64,000 nucleotides of DNA from Solirubrobacteraceae bacterium (GCA_035567335.1 DATMPZ010000048.1:7020-71019); one strand, 5' to 3'. Counted from the first letter of the stretch, positions 603-56,862 are shown. The notes: generated from the letters alone by a model not told the origin. A program made the numbers and translations.

Positions 603-1784
603 TCAGATCTCGGTGTCGGCGGGCACGCCCTCGTGGTGCTTGGACCCGCGCTTTGCCTGTCGCTTGGCCTGCCGCTTGGCCTTGCGAGCCGCCGACTGCT
701 CGGCGCTCTTCTGGCGCGCTTCGGCGTATGACTGCTCGACGAGCGTCTTGCCCCCGCTCCAGCCGAACGCTCGCACGAGCAGCAGGATCGCCAGCAGGAT
801 GCTCCAGGCCGTGACCACGAGCTGCTGGGCCACCGAGTAAGCGGTCGCGTTGGCGGGAGTGGTGACGCCTCGCAGCGAGACGGCGTTGAACGCCTGCGTA
901 ACGCCCGCCCCGCCCGGCGTGACGGCTGTCGCGTTGGCGATCGAGTTGCTCGCCACCACGCGCATGATCGTGTGGAAGCTGACGGGGATGTCATACGCGC
1001 CCAGGAACACCGCGATGATTCCTAGCCCCGCAGCCCAGCTGATCGCCTGCGGCGCCACCACGCGCGTGAGGAACGCGCGGGGGCTGGCGAGGATCCTGCC
1101 CCCCGCCTTCGCCTGCTCCCACCACTTGTCGATCCGCTCGCGCAACATCTGCGCGACCAGGAACAGGAGCGCCGCGATGCCCACGAGCAGGACCGCGATC
1201 GCAACCGGATGGGCGCTGATGAAGCCCAGCTGCAGGCTGAACGATCCGCCGACGGTCAGGAACAGATACACGTAGCACGCCGTGCCGATCAGCGTGAAGA
1301 AGATCTTCTCCACCGCCAGCGAGCCCAGCACCCCCGCGAACGTAACGCCCGCGATGATCGTCGTGAACATCAGCAGCATCGCCCACGTCCCCAGATTCGC
1401 CGGCAGCACCCAGTTGAGCGCCACCGCCGCCGCATAGCAGGCGAGCACCTGCACGAACCGCACGCCCCCGCGCGGATACGCGCAGCGCAGGATCGAATAC
1501 CACGAGAACCCCACCATCGTCGTCTGCAGCGTCACGAGCGCGAGCGCGCCGAGCAGGCTGGCGAGCGGCAGGCTCGTGATCGTGTCCCAGATGTGGCGGA
1601 ACCAGGCTTCGACGTTCCAGCCGAACAGCGTCGCGCCGGCGCCGAGCACGACCAGCACGAGCGCGCCAATCAGCAGCCGTCTTGCGGGAAGGCGCCTCCC
1701 GATGGGCGCCGCCGGCCGATCGGCGATCCTCCGATCTCCCCGCGGCGGAGTGGGCGTGCCGCTGCTCTCAAGATACGCTCCCAC
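603..1784 (-). CDS. Lysylphosphatidylglycerol synthase TM-domain (YbhN/flippase-like) membrane protein
   Basis: About 8 TM helices, motifs ALNWVLPANLG and TPGGAGV, basic C-tail; N-terminus overlaps a GATC palindrome copy. Confidence 0.75.
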   Translation of the reverse strand: MGAYLESSGTPTPPRGDRRIADRPAAPIGRRLPARRLLIGALVLVVLGAGATLFGWNVEAWFRHIWDTITSLPLASLLGALALVTLQTTMVGFSWYSILRCAYPRGGVRFVQVLACYAAAVALNWVLPANLGTWAMLLMFTTIIAGVTFAGVLGSLAVEKIFFTLIGTACYVYLFLTVGGSFSLQLGFISAHPVAIAVLLVGIAALLFLVAQMLRERIDKWWEQAKAGGRILASPRAFLTRVVAPQAISWAAGLGIIAVFLGAYDIPVSFHTIMRVVASNSIANATAVTPGGAGVTQAFNAVSLRGVTTPANATAYSVAQQLVVTAWSILLAILLLVRAFGWSGGKTLVEQSYAEARQKSAEQSAARKAKRQAKRQAKRGSKHHEGVPADTEI

Positions 1785-1834: not shown

Positions 1835-1930
1835 GCGCCCGTAGCTCAGTGGTCAACGGTTCTCTTCGGGGAGCCAAAGAGCAGCGGTCTTTCAAGCCGC
1901 AGGCCGCGGGTTCGATTCCCGCCGGGCGCA
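1835..1930 (+). tRNA. tRNA with UUC anticodon (nominal tRNA-Glu) and a 31-nt D-loop containing an extra hairpin
   Basis: Acceptor GCGCCCG 1835-1841/CGGGCGC 1923-1929; D stem GCTC 1844-1847/GAGC 1879-1882; anticodon arm GCGGT-CTTTCAA-GCCGC 1884-1900; T arm GCGGG-TTCGATT-CCCGC 1906-1922; discriminator A1930; no encoded CCA. Confidence 0.8.
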
Positions 1931-1980: not shown

Positions 1981-2053
1981 GGCGCCGGTCTTCAGGCGCC
2001 GGTCTTTAGTATCCGTGGATACCACTCGTGGATACCACTCATAGGTACCACCC
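1981..2053. repeat. Short tandem repeats downstream of the tRNA
   Basis: GGCGCCGGTCTT twice (1981, 1995); GTGGATACCACTC twice (2015, 2028) plus a degenerate third copy at 2041. Confidence 0.7.
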
Positions 2054-2108: not shown

Positions 2109-3689
2109 TCACCCCTCCGCAATCGCCCGCCAGGCCGCCCGCGCGCCCATGAATGGGGCGAGCGCGATGTAGACGACGTGGTCGGCCAGCTCGGGCAGGC
2201 GTCGCGACTGCCCGCGCAGGACGTAGTCGTGGAGCAGCTCGAACACGCCCCCGACGATCGCCTCCCCGACGACCGGCGAGGGCAGCAGCGAGGGCGCGTC
2301 GCGCGCCGTGCGCAGGTCGAGCAGCCCGGCGTAGAAGTCGTTGGCCTGCTGCACACGCTGGGCCATGTGCGGGTAGGCGATCATCACGTCCACGCACGCC
2401 AGGTGCGCGTAGGAGGGCTCGCAGGCGAGCAGCTCCAGCAGCGCCGCCGCCCCCGCGCGCACCGCGCCGATCCAGCTGGTCTGCCGCGCGAGCGTCTGGT
2501 TGACGACCGCCATCGCGCGCGCGTGACCGGTCTCGTAGGTGGCGACGAACGCCTCTTCCTTGCCGGCGAAGTGCGCGTAGAAGGTCTGCAGCGACACGGC
2601 CGCCTCGGTGGCGATCTCATCCAGGCCGAGGGCCGGATAGCCGCGCGCCGCCGTGAGGTTGGCGATCGCGTCGAAGATCCGCTCGCGCTGGTTGTGGGTG
2701 ACGAACCCGCGCGGCAGGTTGTGCTCGCCGCGCGGCAGCCCGCGCTCGCCCGACAGCGCTCGCGCCGATAGCGTGCCGGGCACGCGTCCGCCGAGCTGCC
2801 CGCCTGCGACGCGCGCACGCCGTGCGCGCGGGCGCCGCGGCAGCCCCTCGGGCGAGGGGTAGTAGCAGGCGATCCACGCGAGCAGGTCGGGCACGACCTC
2901 GGCCAGGTCCGCCCGCAGCGACCTGCTGGAGCGGGCGCGCTGCACCCGCGTGTACAGGATCCGGCGCACCGCCCCTACGATCGCCCTCGCCACCGGGTCG
3001 GGCACCGTGCCCGGTCCCTCGGCCCGCGCGAACCCCGCGACGATGTAGCGCTGCAGGCGCTCGGCCCCGTCCGCCCAGCGCTGCACCCCGGCCGGGCCCG
3101 CGGCGCCCATCTCCACGCACACCAGCCGGGCCGCGTCGGGTCGGTCGCCGGCGGCGTCGAACAGGGTGCGGATGTACGCCTCGAGCTGCTCGTTCCAGTT
3201 CTCGGTGGGATCCAGGGCCTCCTCCAGGCGGCGCCTCAACCGCTCGACCACCGTGTCGTAGGTCGCCAGCAGGCACTCGTCCTTGTTGTGGAAGTGCTCG
3301 TAAAAGCTGCGCCTGGAGATGCGCGCTCGCGCAACCAGCTCGGAGATGGTCGTCGCGACGTAGCCGTGCTCCTCCACGCATTCCACCATCGCCTTGTAGA
3401 GCCGCTCGCGCTGGTGGGCGGCGACCTGCTCGCGCGGGAGCGCCTGCGGGCCGCGCGGCAGAGCCGCCCCGGAGCGGCGCTCGCCGGCCCCGTCCGGAGC
3501 CTCGGCGCGTGTGGCTGTGGCTCTGCGCCCGGCATCGGCATCAGCCCCGCCCTCCGCCGTGGCTCCGCCTCCCGCTGTGGCTTCGCGCCCCGCCGTGTCC
3601 CCGGCGCGTGGGCGCGCCGGCTCGCTGCCGGCGCCCGTCGCACCTGCGCGGCCCCCACGATTTGCTCGACCCCTTCCAGCAGCTCCCAC
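2109..3689 (-). CDS. Tandem (double) TetR/AcrR-family transcriptional regulator
   Basis: Two TetR HTH modules: QRERLYKAMVECVEEHGYVATTISELVARARISRRSFYEHF and QRERIFDAIANLTAARGYPALGLDEIATEAAVSLQTFYAHF; GTG start with GAGGAG RBS. Confidence 0.85.
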   Translation of the reverse strand: MGAAGRGRANRGGRAGATGAGSEPARPRAGDTAGREATAGGGATAEGGADADAGRRATATRAEAPDGAGERRSGAALPRGPQALPREQVAAHQRERLYKAMVECVEEHGYVATTISELVARARISRRSFYEHFHNKDECLLATYDTVVERLRRRLEEALDPTENWNEQLEAYIRTLFDAAGDRPDAARLVCVEMGAAGPAGVQRWADGAERLQRYIVAGFARAEGPGTVPDPVARAIVGAVRRILYTRVQRARSSRSLRADLAEVVPDLLAWIACYYPSPEGLPRRPRARRARVAGGQLGGRVPGTLSARALSGERGLPRGEHNLPRGFVTHNQRERIFDAIANLTAARGYPALGLDEIATEAAVSLQTFYAHFAGKEEAFVATYETGHARAMAVVNQTLARQTSWIGAVRAGAAALLELLACEPSYAHLACVDVMIAYPHMAQRVQQANDFYAGLLDLRTARDAPSLLPSPVVGEAIVGGVFELLHDYVLRGQSRRLPELADHVVYIALAPFMGARAAWRAIAEG

Positions 3690-4352: not shown

Positions 4353-6416
4353 GTGCCCGCAGTCGATGCACCCGACATACAGCGGCTCTCGATCGACACG
4401 ATCCGCGGCCTGGCGATGGACGCCGTCCAGCAGGCCGGCGCGGGGCACCCGGGCACGGCGATGGCGCTCGCGCCGCTGGGCTACACCCTGTACGAGCGCT
4501 TCCTGCGCGCGAACCCCCGGGACCCGCGGTGGCCCGAGCGCGACCGGTTCGTGCTCAGCTCCGGACACGCGTGCGTGCTGCAGTACTCGCTGCTGCATCT
4601 CACCGGCTATGAGCTGAGCCTCGACGATCTGAAGCAGTTCCGCCAGTGGGGCTCGCGCACGCCCGGTCACCCCGAGCGCGGGCACACGCCGGGCGTCGAG
4701 GTCACGACGGGCCCGCTCGGCCAGGGGTTCGCCAACGCCGTCGGCATGGCGATCGCCGAGCGCTTCCTCGCCGAGCGCTTCAACCGCCCCGGCAGCGAGA
4801 TCGTCGACCACCACACGTACGCGATCTGCTCAGACGGCGACATGATGGAGGGGATCAGCCAGGAGGCGGCCTCGATCGCCGGGCACTTCGGCCTCGGCAA
4901 GCTGATCGTCTGCTACGACGACAACCGCATCACGATCGACGGCAGCACCGCGATCTCCTTCGACGGCGAGAACCACGCCGAGCGCCTCGCCGCCGACGGC
5001 TGGCACGTGCAGCGGGTGTCAGACGCCGAGGACCTCGACGCGCTCACAGCCGCGCTGAGCGCCGCGCGCGAAGAACGCGAGCGGCCGTCTTTCGTCGCGA
5101 TCCGCTCGCACATCGCCTATCCGGCGCCGCACGCGGTCGACACCGCCAAAGCGCACGGCGCGCCGCTGGGCGAGGAGGAGGTGCGCGCCGCCAAGGCCGC
5201 GATGGGCTGGGAGGATCCCGAGCGCACTTTCTGGGTGGACGAGCGCGTACGCGAGCACATGTCGCTGCTGGACGCCGGCGCGCAGGCGCAGACGCGCTGG
5301 CAGGAGCGGTTCGATCAGTGGCGCCGTGCGCTGCCCGAGCTCGCCGCCGAGTGGGATCTCGTCTGGAACGGCAATGGCCTGCGCGAGGGTTGGCGCGAGG
5401 CATTATCGCTTCCCCACTTCGAGGCCGGCACGGAGATCGCCACGCGCGCGGCCGGGCAGAAGACGATGGCGGCGTTCTCCGAGTATGCGCCGACGATGAT
5501 CGGGGGCGCCGCCGATCTGGTCGAGTCGACCAAGACGGCGTTTGCGGGCGCGGGCGCGTTCTCCCGGCCGCACGCCGGGCGCAACGTGCCGTTCGGCATC
5601 CGCGAGCACGCGATGGGCGCGATCGTCAACGGCGCCGCCGCGCACGGCGGGATCGTCAAGCCGTATGGCTCGACGTTCTTGATCTTCTCCGACTACATGC
5701 GCGCGTCGGTGCGACTGTCGGCGCTGATGGGGCTGCCGGTCGTGTGGGTGTGGACGCACGACTCGGTCGGCCTCGGCGAGGACGGGCCGACGCACCAGCC
5801 GGTCGAGCACTATGCGGCGCTGCGCGCGATCCCGAAGCTGTGGGTGATCCGCCCGGCCGATGCGAACGAGACCGCGCAGGCGTGGCGGGTCGCGCTGGAA
5901 CGCACGGACGGCCCGGTGGCGCTGCTGCTCTCGCGGCAGAACATCCCCGTGCTCGACCGCGACGGCGATGGGCTCGGGCAGGCAAGCGAGCTGGAGCGCG
6001 GCGGGTACGTGCTGTGGGACTCCGCGCCGCCTGGCGAGGATAAGCCCGAGCTGATCCTGATCTCCACCGGCGCGGAGGTTCCGTTGACGCTGCGGGCCGC
6101 GCGGACGCTTGCGGCGGAGGGGACGCGGGTAAGAGTTGTTTCGATGCCCTGTATGGAGCTGTTCGAAGCCCAGCCGGCCGGCTACCGCGAGCAGGTGCTG
6201 GCGCCGAGCGTCGGCCCGCGCCTGGCGGTCGAGCCCGGCGCGAGCCTGAGCTGGTGGCGGTGGGTGGGCGATCGCGGCGGGGTGCTGGGGATCGATCGCT
6301 TCGGCGCGAGCGCGCCCGGGTCCAGGGTCCTCGAAGAGCTCGGCTTCACCGTCGAGAACATCGCCGCGCGCGCCCGCGCGCTGCTCGACGGAAAGGCACA
6401 GGAGGCGAGTCGATGA
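4353..6416 (+). CDS. tkt: Transketolase
   Basis: [49 protein letters not shown] motifs. Confidence 0.97.
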
Positions 6417-10050: not shown

Positions 10051-11070
10051 ATGGGTGAGAGGACGATCACGCTCGTGCGCCGCCTGCGCTTCTTCGCAGG
10101 AAATCGCCCCGTGCCCGCGTTCGAGCACGTGCCGTCGCCGCCCTCCGAACGCGGCCACTGGTTACTGGCCGGCACGATCGCCGCACTCGGCGCCGCGGTG
10201 CTGGTCGCAGTCCTCACGGGACTCGTCGGGCGCTCGGCGGGCGTGCCGCCGGCCTCGCCTGTGCCGGTGCTGATCACCGCGGCCACTGCGGCTCCCGCCG
10301 CGGCCTCGGCGGACGTGTCCGCGACAGGGTCGCCCGGGGCGATCGTCGCGCACCCCTCGACCGCCGCGCAGACACAGTCGCTGGCCCGTCTCGACAGTCC
10401 GCTGCAGATGCTCGTCTCCAGCCGTTGGATGGAAGGGTTCTACCCGATCTACTCCGTCGCCCAGACCACGTTCGGCGTCAACTGGCTGCTGATCGCTTCG
10501 ATCCACGAGCAGGAGTCGGCGTTCTCGACCGCCCCCACCACTTATCGCGGTCTCAACTTTGCCGGCTGCTGTGGGGGGCCGATGCAGTTCAACGTCACCA
10601 ACGGCCCCGTCTCGACGTGGGATCTCGTCAGCAACTCCTTCCGGTACGGGCGCCGCCCGGCGGCCTACGACCATCCGACGGTGCGGCACCCGTCGATCTA
10701 TGACGACTTCGACGCGATCATGGCGGCCGCGCACCTGCTGTCCACGGATGGCGCCACGCTCGCGCTCGGCGCCGGCGCGTGGAACGCGGCGTATGACTAC
10801 TACGGTCACGACGCCGCCGGCGTCGCCTACGCCGATCAGGTGCTCGCCCGCGCGATCGGCTGGTCTCAGCACGGGTTCTGCATCAACTGCGGTCTCGACA
10901 CTTCGATGGCCGCCGCCGTGCACGCCGCCTATGGCGCTCCCGTGCTGGCGGCGCTGGAAGCCGAAGCGGCGGCGGCGAGGCAGAGGGCGACGACGACCCG
11001 CAATACGACGACCTTGTCTGCCGGAGTCAGACCGTCGAAGCACGACAGAGCGCGGCCGGGCCATACCTAA
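10051..11070 (+). CDS. Membrane-anchored lytic transglycosylase (lysozyme-like) protein
   Basis: N-terminal TM, then VNWLLIASIHEQES (catalytic Glu), GPMQF, DAIMAAAHLL. Confidence 0.75.
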   Translation: MGERTITLVRRLRFFAGNRPVPAFEHVPSPPSERGHWLLAGTIAALGAAVLVAVLTGLVGRSAGVPPASPVPVLITAATAAPAAASADVSATGSPGAIVAHPSTAAQTQSLARLDSPLQMLVSSRWMEGFYPIYSVAQTTFGVNWLLIASIHEQESAFSTAPTTYRGLNFAGCCGGPMQFNVTNGPVSTWDLVSNSFRYGRRPAAYDHPTVRHPSIYDDFDAIMAAAHLLSTDGATLALGAGAWNAAYDYYGHDAAGVAYADQVLARAIGWSQHGFCINCGLDTSMAAAVHAAYGAPVLAALEAEAAAARQRATTTRNTTTLSAGVRPSKHDRARPGHT

Positions 11071-26422: not shown

Positions 26423-27950
<1,528 letters not shown>

Positions 27951-44900: not shown

Positions 44901-45826
44901 GCAACAACGCGAAGTCGCCTCTCCCCGTTCCGGCCGATCCGGAAGGCCGCTACGCCTACTTCCAGGCGCGCACCGTCGCCGGGCTGCCGGGCGGCGCAGA
45001 GGAAATCATCAAAAAACATATACCGCAACCGATCGAAACACCGGCCATGCAGGTGTACCGCTACGACAGCGAGACGGACGCGGTTGAGTGTGTTTCGTGT
45101 GCGTCGCCGTCGGATCCGGAACCGCGGTTCGGCTCCTACGCGCTGATCACACAGATCAAACCCAACGTTGGCCCGGGGTTGACGTCGGCGTCCGCGAACG
45201 GGGAGTTCGCGTTCTTCTCGACCCCCGCCGCGCTCTTGCCCGCAGACGTCGACGGCGAAATCGAACCCGAACCAAACGACACCCCTCCCGACACTCACCC
45301 TAGTCTCGGCGGCGAGACGTCGCTCTCGAGCGACGTGTATGAGTGGCGTGCGGATGGCGTGTATGGCTGTGCCCGCGTCCAGGGTTGCTTGTCGTTGATC
45401 ACGAATGGCCGCGGGGGTTATCTGAACCTGCCGCTTGGGAGTGCCCATGAAGGCCGTGACGTCTTCATCTACACGCGCTCGCAGCTCGCGTCGTCTGACC
45501 GGGACAACGCGGGGGATGTCTATGATGTGCGGATCGGTGGGGGTTTCCCGCCGCCGCCGCCCGGTCCGGTGGAATGCGAAGGCGACGCGTGCTCGACCCC
45601 GGCGAGCGCGCCGAACGACGCGACCCCTTCAAGCTTCACGTTCCAGGGCACTGGCAACCTCGTTGCGCCGCTTGCGACAGCGGCGCCACCCCCGCCGCAG
45701 TCGCACAGGTGCCGGAAGGGTACGCGCTTGGTGCGTCACAGGTGTGTGAGGGTGAGGGCGAGGCACGCGAAGGCGAGGACCCGCCGCACCAGCTCAGGGT
45801 ATCGTCGGCGGGGCGGCTCGCGATGA
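41984..45826 (+). CDS. Giant secreted protein with FN3-like repeats and a beta-propeller-like region
   Basis: Signal/TM; repeated L.P.T.Y.AR/YMR FN3-type strands; NLPDCRAYEQVTP; basic Cys-containing tail; ATGA overlaps at both ends. Confidence 0.8.
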   Translation: MIRRSQSGGRPRCAVVHGEKRGLPRLLAVLPAVAAATFVVVSFAGAATGPPKFEVLSNSVHAFSTRAIVRTELIEPPPKTSYRAEYSTSETGPWTFVNGGGTEGGVAHLLFYLGTEWEYPLIKTNGTCDTCVLRHLAPSTQYYARFSVRDEAGESSEIVPFKTTPIAKPELRTEFGSTFRGTGEFTTNAAGFTARIETNGAEATYAFAYSTSQSGPWTPCGAGGAITVAEDFAEPTGACTGLKPETSYFARVAASNEKGAVEELKAFETPSVKATVNPLQSSDVYNVTAVSVRPRGAVSPHGSKTSWRFESAPSASGPWSPIPGASGTISRARAEELGVSHSEPIDAALTGLRPSTTYYMRLFAENDAGEALCSQGGSPISEGKCVTSFETSGPPSAATFATHGVHGEAARVMGAVDPRSTPTSAEQQVRIEGAPTGGTFTLSYEGRTTPPIPINAPGEAGPEGQETVSGALEKLPGGAPGLVFVDGPPGGPYDVMFAGGGAQPLLQGDGSGLTPSGSVNVTTIQAGGEAYDAHYHFEYEPVEPGVEPFSRALSTPSNDGGSGAQPQIRGVDLPGVSPGASYRYRLAASSTAPGNPVVHGQEQTLTAPVPSTASSEPCPNEALRTGPSANLPDCRAYEQVTPVEKGDAQEPFNYGVSLEAEAPVGVDGEHVLVNSPAAWGAGPHAGHGPYLFSRTAGGWQMTAAAPEPEFGVNRLEPRGLTPDLTSMLLKSFAETVPGERGEQVEYRFGPTGGPYTTVATVPAKQAGLGFVSATPDYSKVILAVEDRNLVEPHSTTKSGEDLYEYSGGELRQVNVGVGTCGATSKGVSPDGSRVSFEAVPGGNCSAPRHLYVRVDGTETQDLGVASATDTVRGSNEAGTERLLERTTGEEHELLLEEPETGHTTHLLTLHGQFELAPSRNLGAFYLTTGQALTTEAPEGSVAPESPTPNGSPSVSVYRYDIPLRSLRFLFVASNNAKSPLPVPADPEGRYAYFQARTVAGLPGGAEEIIKKHIPQPIETPAMQVYRYDSETDAVECVSCASPSDPEPRFGSYALITQIKPNVGPGLTSASANGEFAFFSTPAALLPADVDGEIEPEPNDTPPDTHPSLGGETSLSSDVYEWRADGVYGCARVQGCLSLITNGRGGYLNLPLGSAHEGRDVFIYTRSQLASSDRDNAGDVYDVRIGGGFPPPPPGPVECEGDACSTPASAPNDATPSSFTFQGTGNLVAPLATAAPPPPQSHRCRKGTRLVRHRCVRVRARHAKARTRRTSSGYRRRGGSR

Positions 45827-48792
45827 GAGCTCGGATTACCCGCTCGCTTGTGATCTGTGTCGTGGCCGTAGCGCTGACCCCGGCGGTGGCGCTGGCGAAG
45901 CCGAGCGCGGAACCGTTTGAAATTGTCCCTGGCTCGTTTCGTTTCGTGCCGTCGTCTTTGCAGGCGGGTGCGCACGCGGATTGGGTGACGTCGTTCGATT
46001 TCGCGCATGACCCGAATGGGGCGACCCATAACGATGTGCGCAACATCCTCGTGAACGTGCCGGCTGGTTTCGTGGGTAGCAGCACGGCGGTGCCGACGTG
46101 CACCGACGCCCAGCTGCTGGCACGGACGGGCCTGGAAAAGGAAGTGCCGGAGTGTCCGGTGGCGAGCCAGGTCGGTCAGGTGAGGGTGGCGATCACCCCG
46201 TCCAACGAAGGGGGGAGTGGGGGTGTGCGTCTGGTTACGGTGCCGTTGTATAGCATGCAGGTGGCGAGTTTTGGTGTGGCGGCGGAGCTGGGGTTCAGGA
46301 CGGCGCTGTTCACGGGGCTGCTTCAGATTGTGGTGCGACCGGGGGATACGGGTTTGAGCTCGACGACTCCGAATGTCCCGCGGACGGGTGAAGCGCATGA
46401 CATCACGGTGACGGTGTGGGGTGACCCGGCCTCCTCGGAACATGACGCGCAGCGCGGCGAAGTTTGTGAGAGCGAAGGGTTTTGCAAAAACGAACTTGGT
46501 GGCCCGCAGCCCGCGGGTATCCAGAGCAAGCCGTTTCTCTCGAACCCGACGAGTTGCGGGATGTTTTTGGCGTCGATGGAAGCGTTTTCGTGGGAGACGC
46601 CGGACTCGCCGTCGTTTGCGAGCTCGGAAGTGGGGCCGGTGACGGGTTGTGAGCGTGTGCCGTTCGAGCCGTCGATCGAAGTGCAGCCGACGACGCGGGC
46701 GGCGGAATCCCCGTCGGGGTTGAACGTGTCGCTGGTGGTGCCGCAGGAATACGACAATCCGCTCTCGTTGGCGTCGGCGAACTTGAAGGACACGCGGGTG
46801 ACGTTGCCGGAAGGTATGACGATCAACCCGTCCGCCGGCTCCGGGCTGGGGGCCTGCTCGCCGCAGCAGTACGAAGCGGAGACGTCGTCTTCGCCGCCGG
46901 GGGCTGGTTGCCCGGAAGAATCGAAGATCGGCTCGATCGAGATCGAAACGCCGTTGCTTGAAGAAAAGGTCGATGGGGCGGTGTTTGTCGCGACGCCGTA
47001 TGACAACCCGTTCCCGGAACCCGCACACCCGGGCGGGTCGTTGTTGGCGCTGTATATCGTCGCGAAGGACCCGGGGCGGGGGATCGTGATCAAGGTCGCG
47101 GGCCGGGTGTCGCCTGACCCGGTGACGGGCCGGTTGACGACGACGTTCGATAACACGCCGCAGCAGCCGTTCAGCAGGTTCACGCTGAAGTTCCGCCCGG
47201 GCGCGACCGCGCCGCTCGTGTCCCCGCCGGCGTGCGGGACGTTCGCCGCGCAGGCTGCTTTGACGCCGTGGTCAGCGCCCACGGAACCCAGGCTCTTGGA
47301 AAGCCCGGGGTTCCTGCTCACCGAAGGCGTCCACGGCGGCCCCTGCCCGTCGGGCGGCGTGCCCCCCTTCAACCCCCGTGTGGTCGGTGGCACGCAGAAC
47401 AACGCGGCGGGCACCTACAGCGCCTTCTACCTGCGCCTGATCCGCGAAGACGGCGAACAGGAGCTCACCCGCTTCTCGACCGTCATGCCGCCGGGCCTCA
47501 CCGGCAACCTCACCGGGATCCCGTTCTGCCCCGACGCGGCGGTCGAAGCAGCGCGATCGCAGACAGGCGCGCAGGCGGAAACCGAACCGTCGTGTCCCGC
47601 GGCGAGCCAGATCGGGCACACGATCGTCGGCGCCGGCGTCGGCACCGTGCTCGCGCAGACCCCCGGCCGGCTCTACCTCGCGGGCCCTTACCACGGCGCC
47701 CCGCTGTCCCTGATCTCGATCACGAGCGCGAAGGTCGGCCCGTTCGATTTGGGAACGGTCGTGATCCGCTTCGCTTTGCGGATCAACCCGATCACGGCCC
47801 AGGTTGAAGTGGACGCGACCGGGTCGGATCCGATCCCGCACATCATTCGGGGGATCGTGGTGCATGTGCGTGATATCCGCGCGTACGTCGACCGGCCCGG
47901 GTTCATCAAGAACCCCACGAGCTGCGAGCGTATGCAGATCGCTAACACGGTTACGGGGGCTGGGGCCGACCCGTCTAACCCCGCCGGCCAGCAGGCCGTG
48001 AACGTTACGAGCCCTTTCCAGGCCGCGGACTGTCAGAGCCTTGCCTTCAAACCGTCCTTCATGGTCACGACCAGCGGGAGGACCAGCAAAGCGGATGGGG
48101 CAAGCCTGTCCGTGAAGCTCGCCTACCCGAACGCGCCGCAGGGCTCGCAGGCGAACATCCACCAGGTCAAAGTGGAACTCCCCGTCCAGCTTCCCTCACG
48201 GTTGACGACGCTGCAGAAGGCGTGCACCGCCGCGCAATTCCACACCAACCCGGCAGGTTGTCCCGCCCCGTCGGTCGTGGGTTACGCCCGCGCGATCACA
48301 CCGATCCTGCCCGTCCCTCTGGAAGGCCCCGCGTACTTCGTCTCCAACGGCGGGGAAGCGTTCCCGAACCTCATCGTCGTGCTGCAGGGGTACGGCATCA
48401 CGATCGACCTCGTCGGCGACACGTTCATCAGCAAACAGGGCATCACCAGCAGCACGTTCAAGGCGGTCCCGGATCAGCCCGTCACGAGCTTCGAACTGAC
48501 CCTCCCCCAGGGCCCGTTCTCCGCACTGACAGCCAACGGCAACCTCTGCGCGCTAACCCGCACCGTGCTGGTCAAGAAGAAGGTCACGGTCAGAACCAGG
48601 GGTCGCAGGCGCACGATCGTGCGCAGGGTCAGGCAGACACTCCCCGCCTCCCTGTCGATGCCGACCGAATTCGTGGCTCAGAACGGCATGACCCTCCACC
48701 AGAAAACCCTCGTCAGCGTCACCAACTGCGCCAAGGCCAAACCGGCAAAGAAGCGCAAGCACTCCAAAAAGGCTTCCAAGAAGAAGGGCTGA
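45823..48792 (+). CDS. Giant secreted Cys/Pro-rich beta protein of unknown function
   Basis: Signal MRARITRSLVICVVAVALTPAVALA; CPEESKIG/CPAASQIG/CPAPSVVG repeats; Lys-rich tail. Confidence 0.8.
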   Translation: MRARITRSLVICVVAVALTPAVALAKPSAEPFEIVPGSFRFVPSSLQAGAHADWVTSFDFAHDPNGATHNDVRNILVNVPAGFVGSSTAVPTCTDAQLLARTGLEKEVPECPVASQVGQVRVAITPSNEGGSGGVRLVTVPLYSMQVASFGVAAELGFRTALFTGLLQIVVRPGDTGLSSTTPNVPRTGEAHDITVTVWGDPASSEHDAQRGEVCESEGFCKNELGGPQPAGIQSKPFLSNPTSCGMFLASMEAFSWETPDSPSFASSEVGPVTGCERVPFEPSIEVQPTTRAAESPSGLNVSLVVPQEYDNPLSLASANLKDTRVTLPEGMTINPSAGSGLGACSPQQYEAETSSSPPGAGCPEESKIGSIEIETPLLEEKVDGAVFVATPYDNPFPEPAHPGGSLLALYIVAKDPGRGIVIKVAGRVSPDPVTGRLTTTFDNTPQQPFSRFTLKFRPGATAPLVSPPACGTFAAQAALTPWSAPTEPRLLESPGFLLTEGVHGGPCPSGGVPPFNPRVVGGTQNNAAGTYSAFYLRLIREDGEQELTRFSTVMPPGLTGNLTGIPFCPDAAVEAARSQTGAQAETEPSCPAASQIGHTIVGAGVGTVLAQTPGRLYLAGPYHGAPLSLISITSAKVGPFDLGTVVIRFALRINPITAQVEVDATGSDPIPHIIRGIVVHVRDIRAYVDRPGFIKNPTSCERMQIANTVTGAGADPSNPAGQQAVNVTSPFQAADCQSLAFKPSFMVTTSGRTSKADGASLSVKLAYPNAPQGSQANIHQVKVELPVQLPSRLTTLQKACTAAQFHTNPAGCPAPSVVGYARAITPILPVPLEGPAYFVSNGGEAFPNLIVVLQGYGITIDLVGDTFISKQGITSSTFKAVPDQPVTSFELTLPQGPFSALTANGNLCALTRTVLVKKKVTVRTRGRRRTIVRRVRQTLPASLSMPTEFVAQNGMTLHQKTLVSVTNCAKAKPAKKRKHSKKASKKKG

Positions 48793-48799
48793 TTCCGTC

Positions 48800-49858
48800 A
48801 TGGCCTCCGCTCGCGTTCGCCGACCGGACCGCTCGCGGCCCCCAGCGCGTCCCCGGGAGGGCGCTGTGCAGGTCTCAGAGGTGCAGCGCGCGCGGATCCT
48901 CGCGGCGATGGTGCACGTCGTGGCCGAGCATGGTGTCGGCTCTGCGACGGTCGCGCGTGTCGTGGCGCGTGCGGGTGTGTCGCGGCGCACGTTCTATGAG
49001 CAGTTCACGGGTTGCGAGGAGTGCTTCCTGGCGGTGTTCGAGGACGCCCTGGCGCGCGCGGGCCGGAGCGCGAGCGAGGCGGCCGCGGGCGCACCGCCGG
49101 CTTGGCGCGAGCAGCTAAGGGTCGGCCTGGGCGCGCTGCTGGCGTTCTTCGACGAGGAGCCGGCGCTGGGGAGGCTGCTGGTCGTGGACGCGCTGGGCGC
49201 CGGTCCGCTCGTCCTGGAGCGTCGCACACGGGTGCTGCAGGCCCTTGCCACGGTCGTTGACCGGGGGCGCGCGCAGGCCAGGCACGGGCGCAGGACCCCA
49301 GCTCCCTCTTCGCCGCCGGAGCTGACCGCCGAGGGAGTCGTCGGCGCGGTGTTCAGCGTGGTCCATGCGCGCATGCTCGAAGCGGGCGCGGATCATCCGG
49401 TCAACGGGTCCTCGCGTTCCGGTTCGCGTCATGCCGCCGCGCCGCTCAGCGGCCTGCTGAACCCCCTGATGGGAATGATCGTGCTGCCCTATCTCGGCCA
49501 GGCCGCCGCTCAGAAGGAGCTCGTTCGTCCCACGCCGAAGGCTCCTCGTCCGCGTGGGTCCTCCCTCGCGCCACGCGAGCCTTCCGGGGACCCGTTGCGT
49601 GGCCTGAACATGCGCCTGACCTACCGCACCCTCGTAGTCCTCTCAGCCGTCGCGACCGACCCCGGCGCCAGCAACCGCCAGATCGCCGACCACTCAGGCG
49701 TCCACGACCAGGGCCAGATCTCAAAGCTCCTCACCCGCCTGCAAAAACTCGGCCTGATCGACAACACCGGGCACGGACAAGCCCACGGCGAACCCAACGC
49801 CTGGACCCTCACCCCCCACGGAACAGAAGTCCAACACGCACTCACAACCGGTCGCTGA
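48800..49858 (+). CDS. TetR-family regulator with an extra C-terminal winged HTH
   Basis: QRARILAAM..ATVARVVARAGVSRRTFYEQF; C-terminal ASNRQIAD..GQISKLLTRLQKLGLI. Confidence 0.85.
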   Translation: MASARVRRPDRSRPPARPREGAVQVSEVQRARILAAMVHVVAEHGVGSATVARVVARAGVSRRTFYEQFTGCEECFLAVFEDALARAGRSASEAAAGAPPAWREQLRVGLGALLAFFDEEPALGRLLVVDALGAGPLVLERRTRVLQALATVVDRGRAQARHGRRTPAPSSPPELTAEGVVGAVFSVVHARMLEAGADHPVNGSSRSGSRHAAAPLSGLLNPLMGMIVLPYLGQAAAQKELVRPTPKAPRPRGSSLAPREPSGDPLRGLNMRLTYRTLVVLSAVATDPGASNRQIADHSGVHDQGQISKLLTRLQKLGLIDNTGHGQAHGEPNAWTLTPHGTEVQHALTTGR

Positions 49859-56469: not shown

Positions 56470-56631
56470 CTGATCGTCATCGTGGGAAGTCACTAGAGGC
56501 AAGCGTAGCTGGCCTACGATGGCCGCCAGGCGGCCGCGGGGCCGCCCGCTGTCGCAACAGACCACACGAATTGCCTGCAAACGTGTCGACTTTCGACGAG
56601 CCACATGGCTGGTCGGGCAGGTCTACCCACC

Positions 56632-56674
56632 ACTGAAAATCGTGGTGTCCCCAGTTCGAATCTGGGTCTGGCCA
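56632..56674 (+). other. 3' half of tRNA-Phe(GAA): att-site-like remnant
   Basis: CTGAAAA loop, TCGTG-GTGTC, T arm CCCAG-TTCGAAT-CTGGG, acceptor 3' strand TCTGGCC-A; no matching 5' strand or D arm upstream. Confidence 0.75.
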
Positions 56675-56862
56675 TCCAGGTTTTGCCTGCTATTTCGCGG
56701 GGTTTCAACTCTTTCTGGCAAGGCTGCGTTCGGGCCCAAGGGTTTGCGAACGCGACGCTTCCCCCTCCGCACACTGGGGGATGCGGGCGCTCGGCGAGTA
56801 CGTCCTCGACTGGGACGATCTCGGGCCGCTTCGGCGGCACTCGGCGTGGTGCTCCGTGTGGT

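Follow-up and report, generated by a model that had tools for sequence, protein, structure and literature searches.

The gene at positions 1835-1930 (plus strand) of a 64,000-nucleotide stretch of DNA from Solirubrobacteraceae bacterium (GCA_035567335.1, DATMPZ010000048.1:7020-71019; the whole stretch is called the window below) encodes a five-armed tRNA with the anticodon UUC. The four-armed cloverleaf with a short D-loop is among the most constant shapes in biology, and a conserved bacterial five-armed elongator tRNA that takes over a sense codon would be a natural exception to it. Comparison with related genomes firmly supports this tRNA as the conserved reader of GAA in two Solirubrobacterales clades. 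On balance, we favor the view that it is a functional elongator tRNA that is most likely charged by a second class II lysyl-tRNA synthetase (LysRS), here called LysRS-2, with its extra hairpin serving as a mark. Retention of the arm in the mature tRNA, charging by LysRS-2 and this role of the hairpin are all inferences. What is new is the candidate partner enzyme, a LysRS paralog with a rebuilt pocket and a changed anticodon domain, which makes the system testable.

Structure and conservation of the tRNA gene

The gene can be read in order as a cloverleaf with one additional helix. The acceptor stem is formed by GCGCCCG (1835-1841) and CGGGCGC (1923-1929), with 7/7 pairs. U8 and A9 (TA in the gene) lead to the D-stem, GCTC (1844-1847) paired with GAGC (1879-1882), which is invariant in the 20 distinct sequences collected from relatives. 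The D-loop between these strands is 31 nt long. Its 5′ part, AGTGGTCAAC (1848-1857), includes the equivalents of G18 and G19 at 1851-1852, and columns 14-23 are invariant or nearly so. The fifth arm follows at 1858-1875 as an 18-nt C(UUCG)G hairpin, in which a covarying 7-bp helix with two G-U pairs, GGTTCTC (1858-1864) with GGGAGCC (1869-1875), is capped by TTCG (1865-1868). An AAA linker (1876-1878), again invariant in the 20 distinct sequences, returns to the D-stem. After a single A comes the anticodon arm (1884-1900; GCGGT CTTTCAA GCCGC), with a 5-bp stem and the loop CUUUCAA; the sequence, the Rfam alignment and the columns of the relatives place the anticodon UUC at 1891-1893. The 5-nt variable loop, AGGCC, is followed by the T arm, GCGGG TTCGATT CCCGC (1906-1922), assigned from the Rfam alignment and the covariation set, and the gene ends at the discriminator A1930 without an encoded CCA.

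Infernal matched the gene to RF00005 with 66.6 bits (gathering score, 29), covering model positions 1-71, and the Rfam alignment placed a single 25-nt insertion after G18 G19 U. The cloverleaf is retained in the minimum-free-energy fold (z = -3.1). The conserved tRNA core is present, namely U8, A14, G18 G19, a 7-nt anticodon loop, U33, a purine at position 37 and the T-loop TTCRA, and is nearly all invariant across the 20 relatives, three of which carry C37. The gene departs from the four-armed plan with a D-loop of about 7-11 nt in having the 31-nt D-loop with its covarying 7-bp helix. Among the 41 tRNAs that Infernal found in the 2.76-Mb, 93%-complete metagenome-assembled genome (MAG) to which the window belongs (G000), it is the only one with such an insertion. 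An earlier description made from the sequence alone (the sequence-only reading) had proposed a five-armed tRNA with a 31-nt D-loop, a hairpin at 1858-1875, the D-stem GCTC/GAGC and a 5-nt variable loop; each of these elements was recovered at the same place, and the full-model RF00005 match and the covarying extra helix support the five-armed tRNA. The gene at 1835-1930 is a real five-armed tRNA. ARAGORN also detects it, taking the D-loop hairpin as the anticodon arm. Three other ARAGORN calls in the window, at 10764-10835 (minus strand), 49347-49438 (plus) and 56606-56678 (plus), reached neither the Rfam gathering score nor, genome-wide, E <= 0.01 with Infernal, and are probably spurious calls caused by GC-rich sequence.

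All genomes compared here are uncultured MAGs. The sequence-only reading had held that an insertion unique to this assembly would speak against it. Of the 36 species genomes of the genus, several of which are single-contig, 34 have the 96-nt gene, at 88-100% identity, and the tRNA sequence is identical across 17 independently assembled species genomes. It was not found in the other five families of the order sampled in the same search. Scanning bacteria and archaea with a pattern, one genome per species, gave 120 loci, of which about 95 are from Solirubrobacteraceae/Solirubrobacterales (Thermoleophilia) MAGs and share the five-armed design; the remainder are mostly archaeal genes with D-loop introns, with a few chance matches spanning adjacent tRNA genes.

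Across the 20 distinct sequences, the five-helix structure is 99.3% paired. In the extra helix, 7/7 pairs are variable, five of them with changes on both sides, and 97% of cells are paired; none of 500 shuffles matched the observed covariation values, and sliding the partners abolished the signal. For comparison, the acceptor stem has two pairs with changes on both sides among the relatives. The hairpin stem varies widely (GGTTCTC/GGGAGCC, GGGACTC/GGGTTCC, GGGTCCT/GGGGCCC and GGCCTCT/GGGGGCC), as does its cap (UUCG, UACG, GAAA, GCAA and UUUG, with 5-6-nt loops in a few genomes). The linkers CAAC and AAA and G18 G19 are invariant in the same set, as are columns 55-59 and 61 of the anticodon loop; column 60 (position 37) is mostly A, with C in three, and the UUC anticodon is kept in 20/20. 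Since pairing is kept while the hairpin sequence varies, and since the linkers are invariant, the pattern fits a fifth helix under selection as a structural arm, which would sit next to the elbow, within the variable part of the D-loop. Several relatives also carry 3′-half copies of the tRNA 4-32 kb from the intact gene (G027:C2:289340-289388; G034:C2:151540-151590; G032:C1:2199848-2199892; further coordinates are G031:C3:729677-745231 and G009:C8:116854-128476), and this MAG has none. Such copies would be as expected for attachment-site repeats of elements integrated in the tRNA gene.

The body of the tRNA is unlike that of tRNA-Glu. When the hairpin is left out, its identity is 80% with the tRNA-Arg(UCU) of the genome, 79% with tRNA-Lys(UUU) and 63% with tRNA-Glu(CUC), which supports the Lys/Arg-like body seen in the sequence-only reading. 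The tRNA has the YUC anticodon of tRNA-Glu (UUC) and lacks the Glu-type augmented D-helix, its variable loop being 5 nt long. It has A73 (A1930) and a Lys-type body, tRNA-Arg(UCU) being equally close to it, with C36 in place of the U36 of tRNA-Lys. The identity set of E. coli glutamyl-tRNA synthetase (GluRS) comprises U11:A24, U13:G22-A46 and the lack of nucleotide 47. Because C11:G24, C13:G22 and nucleotide 47 are present here, the D-arm elements for GluRS are absent, again as the sequence-only reading had stated.

The GAA codon, its reader and its distribution

In three complete genomes of the genus (G005, G023 and G025), a scan with a pattern for a UUC anticodon arm and T-loop found the five-armed gene as the sole tRNA-like match, and the same scan gave the same result in the second clade (G157, G161 and G159). 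An ordinary Glu-type tRNA(UUC) is present in other families of the order (G037, G043, G051, G052 and G059). Because those families keep the canonical gene and the five-armed gene stands alone in the complete genomes, the comparison shows that the canonical tRNA-Glu(UUC) has been replaced by the five-armed tRNA in the genus and in a second related clade. A canonical tRNA-Glu(UUC) elsewhere in the genome, which the sequence-only reading had named, in combination with a lack of expression of this RNA, as a finding that would tell against it, did not turn up in the three complete genomes of the genus.

GAA behaves in evolution as an acidic, glutamate-like codon. In three genes flanking the tRNA, GAA was exchanged with GAG 37 times, with GAC 7 times and with AAG 4 times. 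When cytoplasmic genes were compared with three control genomes, GAA sites faced E in 50% and D in 13% of cases, a profile like that of GAG, and E followed by D was the most frequent counterpart in both cytoplasmic and exported genes. K stood opposite GAA in 2-8% of cases, and a reading of GAA as lysine was rejected because K is so rare there. At conserved-E sites of cytoplasmic genes, GAA shows a mild deficit (0.060 vs 0.086), no larger than that of the controls when the comparison is run in the opposite direction (0.048 vs 0.068).

The use of GAA depends strongly on the destination of the protein; the signal-peptide, topology and open reading frame (ORF) calls used here are simple heuristics. 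In this MAG, the GAA share of Glu codons is 0.59 in 80 strictly predicted signal-peptide proteins vs 0.10 in cytoplasmic ones, and in G025 it is 0.49 vs 0.11. In three controls with a canonical tRNA-Glu(UUC), it is 0.02-0.14 in exported vs 0.11-0.15 in cytoplasmic proteins. The split also runs through single proteins: in 158 multi-pass membrane proteins, with loop sides assigned by the positive-inside rule, the GAA share is 0.28 in predicted outside loops vs 0.15 in inside loops (p = 1e-13), and in the control genomes this difference is reversed. Among 19 codon pairs compared between exported and cytoplasmic genes, the only clear difference was that of Glu; Lys (AAA, 0.21-0.26 vs 0.11) and Cys differed more weakly, and GC3 was equal. 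A composition shift or foreign origin of the exported genes was ruled out by this Glu-only difference, the equal GC3 and the within-protein split. These results suggest that GAA, which is used thousands of times in the genome, is preferred for residues whose final place is outside the membrane. As a side observation, the AAA share in exported proteins is 0.19-0.26 vs 0.11 (G000 and G025), which partly mirrors GAA.

The choice between GAA and GAG is also conserved site by site. We compared G025 with this MAG over 394 orthologue pairs at about 71% amino-acid identity. In 33 GAA-rich genes, 152 sites were GAA in both genomes, 106 were GAG in both and 35 were discordant, where a gene-by-gene expectation gave 123 (ratio, 0.28; odds ratio, 56). 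For the other synonymous pairs of these genes, the ratio was 0.74-0.94, with AAA/AAG at 0.56 and ACA/ACG at 0.51 from few sites. The context of neighboring bases or residues was too weak to be the cause, giving 0.62-0.82 in most contexts. In exported proteins, replacement of GAA by a codon for Ala, Asp, Gln or Ser is more frequent than replacement by GAG. In this clade, GAA and GAG may have ceased to be fully synonymous.

At Walker-B-like Glu sites, GAA occurs in 2 of 175 cases here (background, 9.4%) vs 6 of 69 in the controls (9.3%; Fisher p = 0.007). In a strict P-loop set, it occurs in 0/75 here; the corresponding 0/13 in the controls comes at a low background and is without power. Because the Walker-A Lys codon AAA and the zincin His codon CAT show similar avoidance here, the avoidance of GAA at catalytic sites may partly be a general accuracy effect. 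Specifically, AAA stands at 1 of 161 Walker-A lysines (background, 6.6%), and AAA/AAG discordance is about half of expectation in all gene classes.

LysRS-2 and the proposed charging of the five-armed tRNA

All genomes examined have a single GluRS-family gene, and GlnRS was matched in none. Genomes of the genus carry three class IIb synthetase genes, vs two in the controls; NCBIfam models assign the three to two class II LysRS and an archaeal-type non-discriminating aspartyl-tRNA synthetase (AspRS). LysRS-2 lies at G000:C43:101815-103332 in this genome. It scores above the cut-offs for class II LysRS (NF001756, 536 bits with a cut-off of 468; TIGR00499, 473 bits with a cut-off of 427.6) and aligns full-length with solved LysRS structures. 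The other copy, LysRS-1, is 65% identical to the LysRS of G037, and LysRS-2 is 47% identical to LysRS-1. The AspRS, of 436 aa, is encoded at G000:C9:22413-23723 (L305:1414-2724); that of the control G037 is bacterial-type (L308:2013-4982).

Both recognition surfaces of LysRS-2 are altered. Numbered on E. coli LysU and checked on chain 1e1o, it retains E240, R262, E278 and E428, and has Y280 changed to M, N424 to S and F426 to D; the motif E-W-Y reads E-F-M, and A-N-A-F-S-E reads V-S-G-D-T-E. In the second clade, Y280 is changed to F, N424 and F426 to G, and E428 to D, with the motifs E-M-F-V-G-G and V-G-G-G-T-D. LysRS-2 does not have the full lysine pocket of E240, E278, Y280, N424, F426 and E428. 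We take Y280, F426 and E428 of LysU to line the pocket for the lysine side chain, and E278 and E428 presumably hold its cationic end. The anticodon-binding domain has GQL in place of GEL throughout the clade, and DLSGQVQ in place of DRSGKIQ. The glutamate of GEL is, we assume, on the anticodon-reading surface, and its change to glutamine would suit the change from U to C at position 36 of the tRNA.

The tRNA and the enzyme occur together. Our survey of the order covered 121 genomes and 48 genera. Close orthologues of LysRS-2, defined by at least 80% identity, were present in only three of these genomes, all of this genus, and the same three alone carry the tRNA; neither was found in the other 118. 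The other surveyed genomes have one canonical LysRS, some with a long LysX-type fusion in addition, and G153 has two standalone copies. Within the genus, 49 of 61 genomes have LysRS-2; of the 26 with a completeness of 90% or more, 25 do. Five additional genomes, which were traced from their five-armed tRNA loci, gave two or three LysRS-like matches each. In the tree, the extra copies of G157, G159 and G161 group with LysRS-2 of the genus in a single clade (100/100), from which the canonical LysRS are set apart (100/100). In 13 species loci of the second clade, the paralog is found directly upstream of the tRNA gene and in the same orientation, at a distance of 115 bp to 2.5 kb; the gene order in L097, for example, is Lgt, PrmC, the LysRS paralog, two variable genes and the tRNA. 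A protein search with the paralog listed 120 matches, all at least 82% identical and mostly from soil metagenomes. Among these listed matches, the named organisms are all Solirubrobacterales, every protein is annotated 'lysine--tRNA ligase', and no independent lineage appeared.

These observations make a pairing of the five-armed tRNA with LysRS-2 probable, the hairpin separating this tRNA from its Lys/Arg relatives. In the mechanism that we propose, the tRNA would have descended from a Lys/Arg-type tRNA, and the extra hairpin would be kept as a fifth arm that projects from the variable part of the D-loop near the elbow. Charging would be carried out by the dedicated class II enzyme LysRS-2, whose anticodon-binding domain and amino-acid pocket are both rebuilt, and not by the single GluRS. 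The hairpin would be an identity or anti-identity mark that separates the pair from LysRS-1 and arginyl-tRNA synthetase (ArgRS), and the residue inserted at GAA evolves as an acidic, glutamate-like one. The sequence-only reading had suggested altered charging. This survives in part, in that a candidate partner exists, the co-occurring LysRS paralog that is adjacent in the second clade; an assignment of GAA to lysine does not survive.

Several points weigh against this proposal. The tRNA and LysRS-2 are on different contigs in this genus and are therefore unlinked there. G003, which is 93% complete, has the tRNA, and no LysRS-2 was found in it at E <= 1e-180. G170 and G176 have two LysRS-2-like genes and one detected five-armed tRNA each; the idea that two LysRS-2 copies predict two five-armed tRNAs holds in G030 and fails in these two genomes. 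The co-occurrence rests on two related clades, and so on at most two independent events. The second LysRS could be an inhibitor-resistant or stress copy, and the retained acidic residues E278 and E428 (D428 in the second clade) would fit a glutamate substrate poorly. Finally, this MAG has two further UUC tRNA-like genes, at C17:18422-18493 and C21:80286-80358; a pattern scan of G005, G023, G025 and G030 found no counterparts of them.

The C17 gene is a low-GC UUC tRNA on a U1/G73 body, and the C21 gene is a UUC tRNA with an irregular anticodon arm. Other odd tRNA genes of this MAG are a class I body with UAA (C37:12686-12758), an Asp-like gene with an encoded CCA (C17:41376-41446) and a degenerate Arg(UCU)-like copy (C35:70080-70153).

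We consider it less likely that the same five-armed GAA reader is charged with plain glutamate by an ordinary, probably non-discriminating GluRS through its UUC anticodon. LysRS-2 would then be an unrelated lysine enzyme, such as a copy for stress, resistance or the supply of lipid lysinylation, and the preference for GAA in exported proteins would reflect the decoding speed or accuracy of an unusual tRNA. Consistent with this, GAA is an ordinary Glu codon in cytoplasmic genes, including sites that are conserved E in other families; a single GluRS without a GlnRS match would imply that GluRS already tolerates variation at position 36; the acidic pocket residues of LysRS-2 suit a cationic substrate; and the enzyme is unlinked to the tRNA in this genus. 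However, the tRNA is without the D-arm features known for bacterial GluRS from the E. coli identity set, and the paralog, whose anticodon domain is altered, co-occurs with it and is its neighbor in the second clade. Furthermore, a uniform effect on speed would leave unexplained why GAG and GAA sites are conserved separately within the same exported proteins.

A bolder and more doubtful extension of the LysRS-2 proposal is that the pair inserts something other than plain glutamate, be it a Glu-like amino acid outside the standard set, one that is modified while on the tRNA, or a mixture. This residue would be used where it faces the outside and avoided at catalytic glutamates, and a two-codon sense box would have been split in nature; we hold this tentatively at best. 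Room for it is left by the retained acidic residues of the pocket, the site-wise conservation of GAA and GAG and the avoidance at catalytic sites. The rebuilt pocket, the discordance of 35 vs 123, the replacements seen at GAA sites and the avoidance at Walker-B would all speak for it. Against it, GAA in cytoplasmic genes stands at conserved-E sites as often as in the controls, and no biosynthetic genes linked to the tRNA/LysRS-2 pair were found.

We consider it improbable that the hairpin is an intervening sequence, removed by an unknown bacterial activity to leave a four-armed tRNA; a processed insertion, one option of the sequence-only reading, is disfavored by the covarying helix with its stable tetraloop caps. 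Archaeal introns at non-canonical positions are alike in being D-loop insertions in tRNA genes, and those of Thermoplasmata and Methanomassiliicoccales matched our search pattern; in addition, the insert at this site ranges from 14 to about 150 nt in paralogous tRNAs. Unlike here, the archaeal introns come with a bulge-helix-bulge and a splicing endonuclease. As the sequence-only reading had claimed, no bulge-helix-bulge motif is present at the boundaries of the insert, which is a plain hairpin, and the endonuclease (PF01974) was not found in 5 genomes, whereas it was found in 4/4 archaeal controls. At 18 nt, the insert is far below the size of self-splicing introns, and it has no match to an Rfam ribozyme or intron family. 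UNCG or GNRA caps between invariant CAAC and AAA linkers are as for a structural arm. A group I intron was rejected, since the insert is 18 nt long (25 by the model alignment) and in the D-loop, where such an intron would be >200 nt, in the anticodon loop and with a ribozyme core.

Still less probable, in our view, is a tRNA-like RNA that works outside translation, as an amino-acid donor for lipid or cell wall or as a regulator, with GAA read by other means; this had been another option of the sequence-only reading. The gene that flanks the tRNA at 603-1784 (minus strand) has a lysyl-phosphatidylglycerol (LPG)-synthase transmembrane (TM) domain, and long LysX-type LysRS fusions that serve lipid lysinylation occur in the order. 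On the other side, the anticodon loop is conserved, with 6/7 columns invariant and UUC in 20/20, and the gene is the sole conserved UUC tRNA of the genus, the complete genomes having no other despite thousands of GAA codons. The LPG-synthase-like neighbor was dropped as a functional partner, since a search of the related loci matched it in only 5 places. That the gene is an artefact of assembly or a pseudogene in decay is a negligible possibility, given the identity of its sequence in 17 species genomes that were assembled independently, some as single contigs, and given compensatory changes that keep all five helices.

Known systems, related tRNAs and neighboring genes

The five-armed tRNA with LysRS-2 resembles several known systems in part. 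It shares with the canonical tRNA-Glu(UUC) the UUC anticodon and a codon that aligns as glutamate or acid, and differs from it in the Lys/Arg-type body, the 31-nt D-loop with an extra helix and, probably, the synthetase. With tRNA-Lys(UUU) and class II LysRS (LysS/LysU, TIGR00499), the common features are A73, the D-stem and the T-arm; in contrast, C36, the fifth arm and the replacement of Y280, N424, F426 and GEL throughout the clade set the present system apart. The class II tRNAs (Leu, Ser and Tyr) and tRNA-Sec also have an extra or enlarged helix that leaves the L-shape undisturbed and can be read by partner enzymes, but their arms lie in the variable region or take the form of a longer D-stem. 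A separate hairpin in the D-loop is absent from the tRNA classes of a 2020 review and from the literature searched.

Dedicated synthetases with a rebuilt pocket and an atypical tRNA are found in the pairs of PylRS with tRNA-Pyl and of SepRS with tRNA-Cys, and in the second clade the LysRS paralog and the five-armed tRNA likewise lie side by side. The codon of those pairs is a stop codon, or their product enters a tRNA-dependent conversion, whereas the codon concerned here is a sense codon of a two-codon box. The bldA tRNA-Leu(UUA) of Streptomyces is similar in that one tRNA serves a minority codon concentrated in a functional class of genes. In contrast, the split described here follows the side of the membrane within single proteins and is conserved site by site, with no gene-level switch. 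In the literature searched, we found no description of a bacterial tRNA with a D-loop hairpin, of the GAA split or of this LysRS paralog. If plain glutamate is inserted, a synthetase would have changed both its amino acid and its codon; if another residue is inserted, nature would have expanded the genetic code at a sense codon. In both cases, engineering would gain an orthogonal pair that is ready for use and a tRNA of new design.

Further tRNA genes share the acceptor stem and D-loop frame of the five-armed tRNA and differ in anticodon and insert size: UUU with 46 nt in three copies in G011 (L032-L034), UGU with 35 nt, UCU with 14 nt, and ACC. Further loci of such paralogs are L031 (G001), L035 (G019) and L094. 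G030, which also has two LysRS-2-like genes, carries a second UUC copy with a different acceptor stem at G030:C1:1881888-1881965. Other genera have UUC or UGG tRNA-like genes with a structured D-loop insert of about 135-150 nt at the same site (L036, L038, which is L244:12115-12317 of G043, L039 and L040); the cloverleaf is kept in their predicted fold, and the long inserts have no Rfam family match. In G043, the long-insert gene is followed by a 645-aa degenerate LeuRS-like ORF (L244:12364-14301). A genus with a long-insert UUC gene keeps the canonical tRNA-Glu and has no GAA bias in exported proteins.

The frame is also found on phage contigs of 43-69% GC with the anticodons UUC, CCU, UUU and UGC. 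Two phage contigs encode LysRS-like proteins (L226:7769-9154 and L220:5553-6995, both on the minus strand) within about 6 kb of a match to the D-loop-insertion pattern. On L226, the pattern matched a five-armed-type tRNA, and the LysRS-like protein of this contig carries F at the position of the pocket tyrosine; the L220 match resembles two adjacent tRNA genes.

In the window, a terminator-like hairpin with a T-rich tail lies 50 nt 3′ of the tRNA at 1981-2000 (plus strand). It was identified by a consensus scan only, which gave 2 overlapping sites vs 0.3 expected from shuffles. Between 1981 and 2050, two direct copies of GGCGCCGGTCTT, which form this hairpin, are followed by two copies of GTGGATACCACT and the variant ATAGGTACCACC. 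Two further ORFs of the window illustrate the preference for GAA: a predicted lipoprotein at 27480-27950 (minus strand) has 6 GAA and 0 GAG, and a 1072-aa ORF at 45574-48792 (plus strand), with one predicted membrane segment and no Pfam match, has 40 GAA and 15 GAG. On the side opposite the LPG-synthase-like gene, the tRNA is flanked by a 526-aa double-TetR regulator (2109-3689, minus strand), and a transketolase is encoded at 4353-6416.

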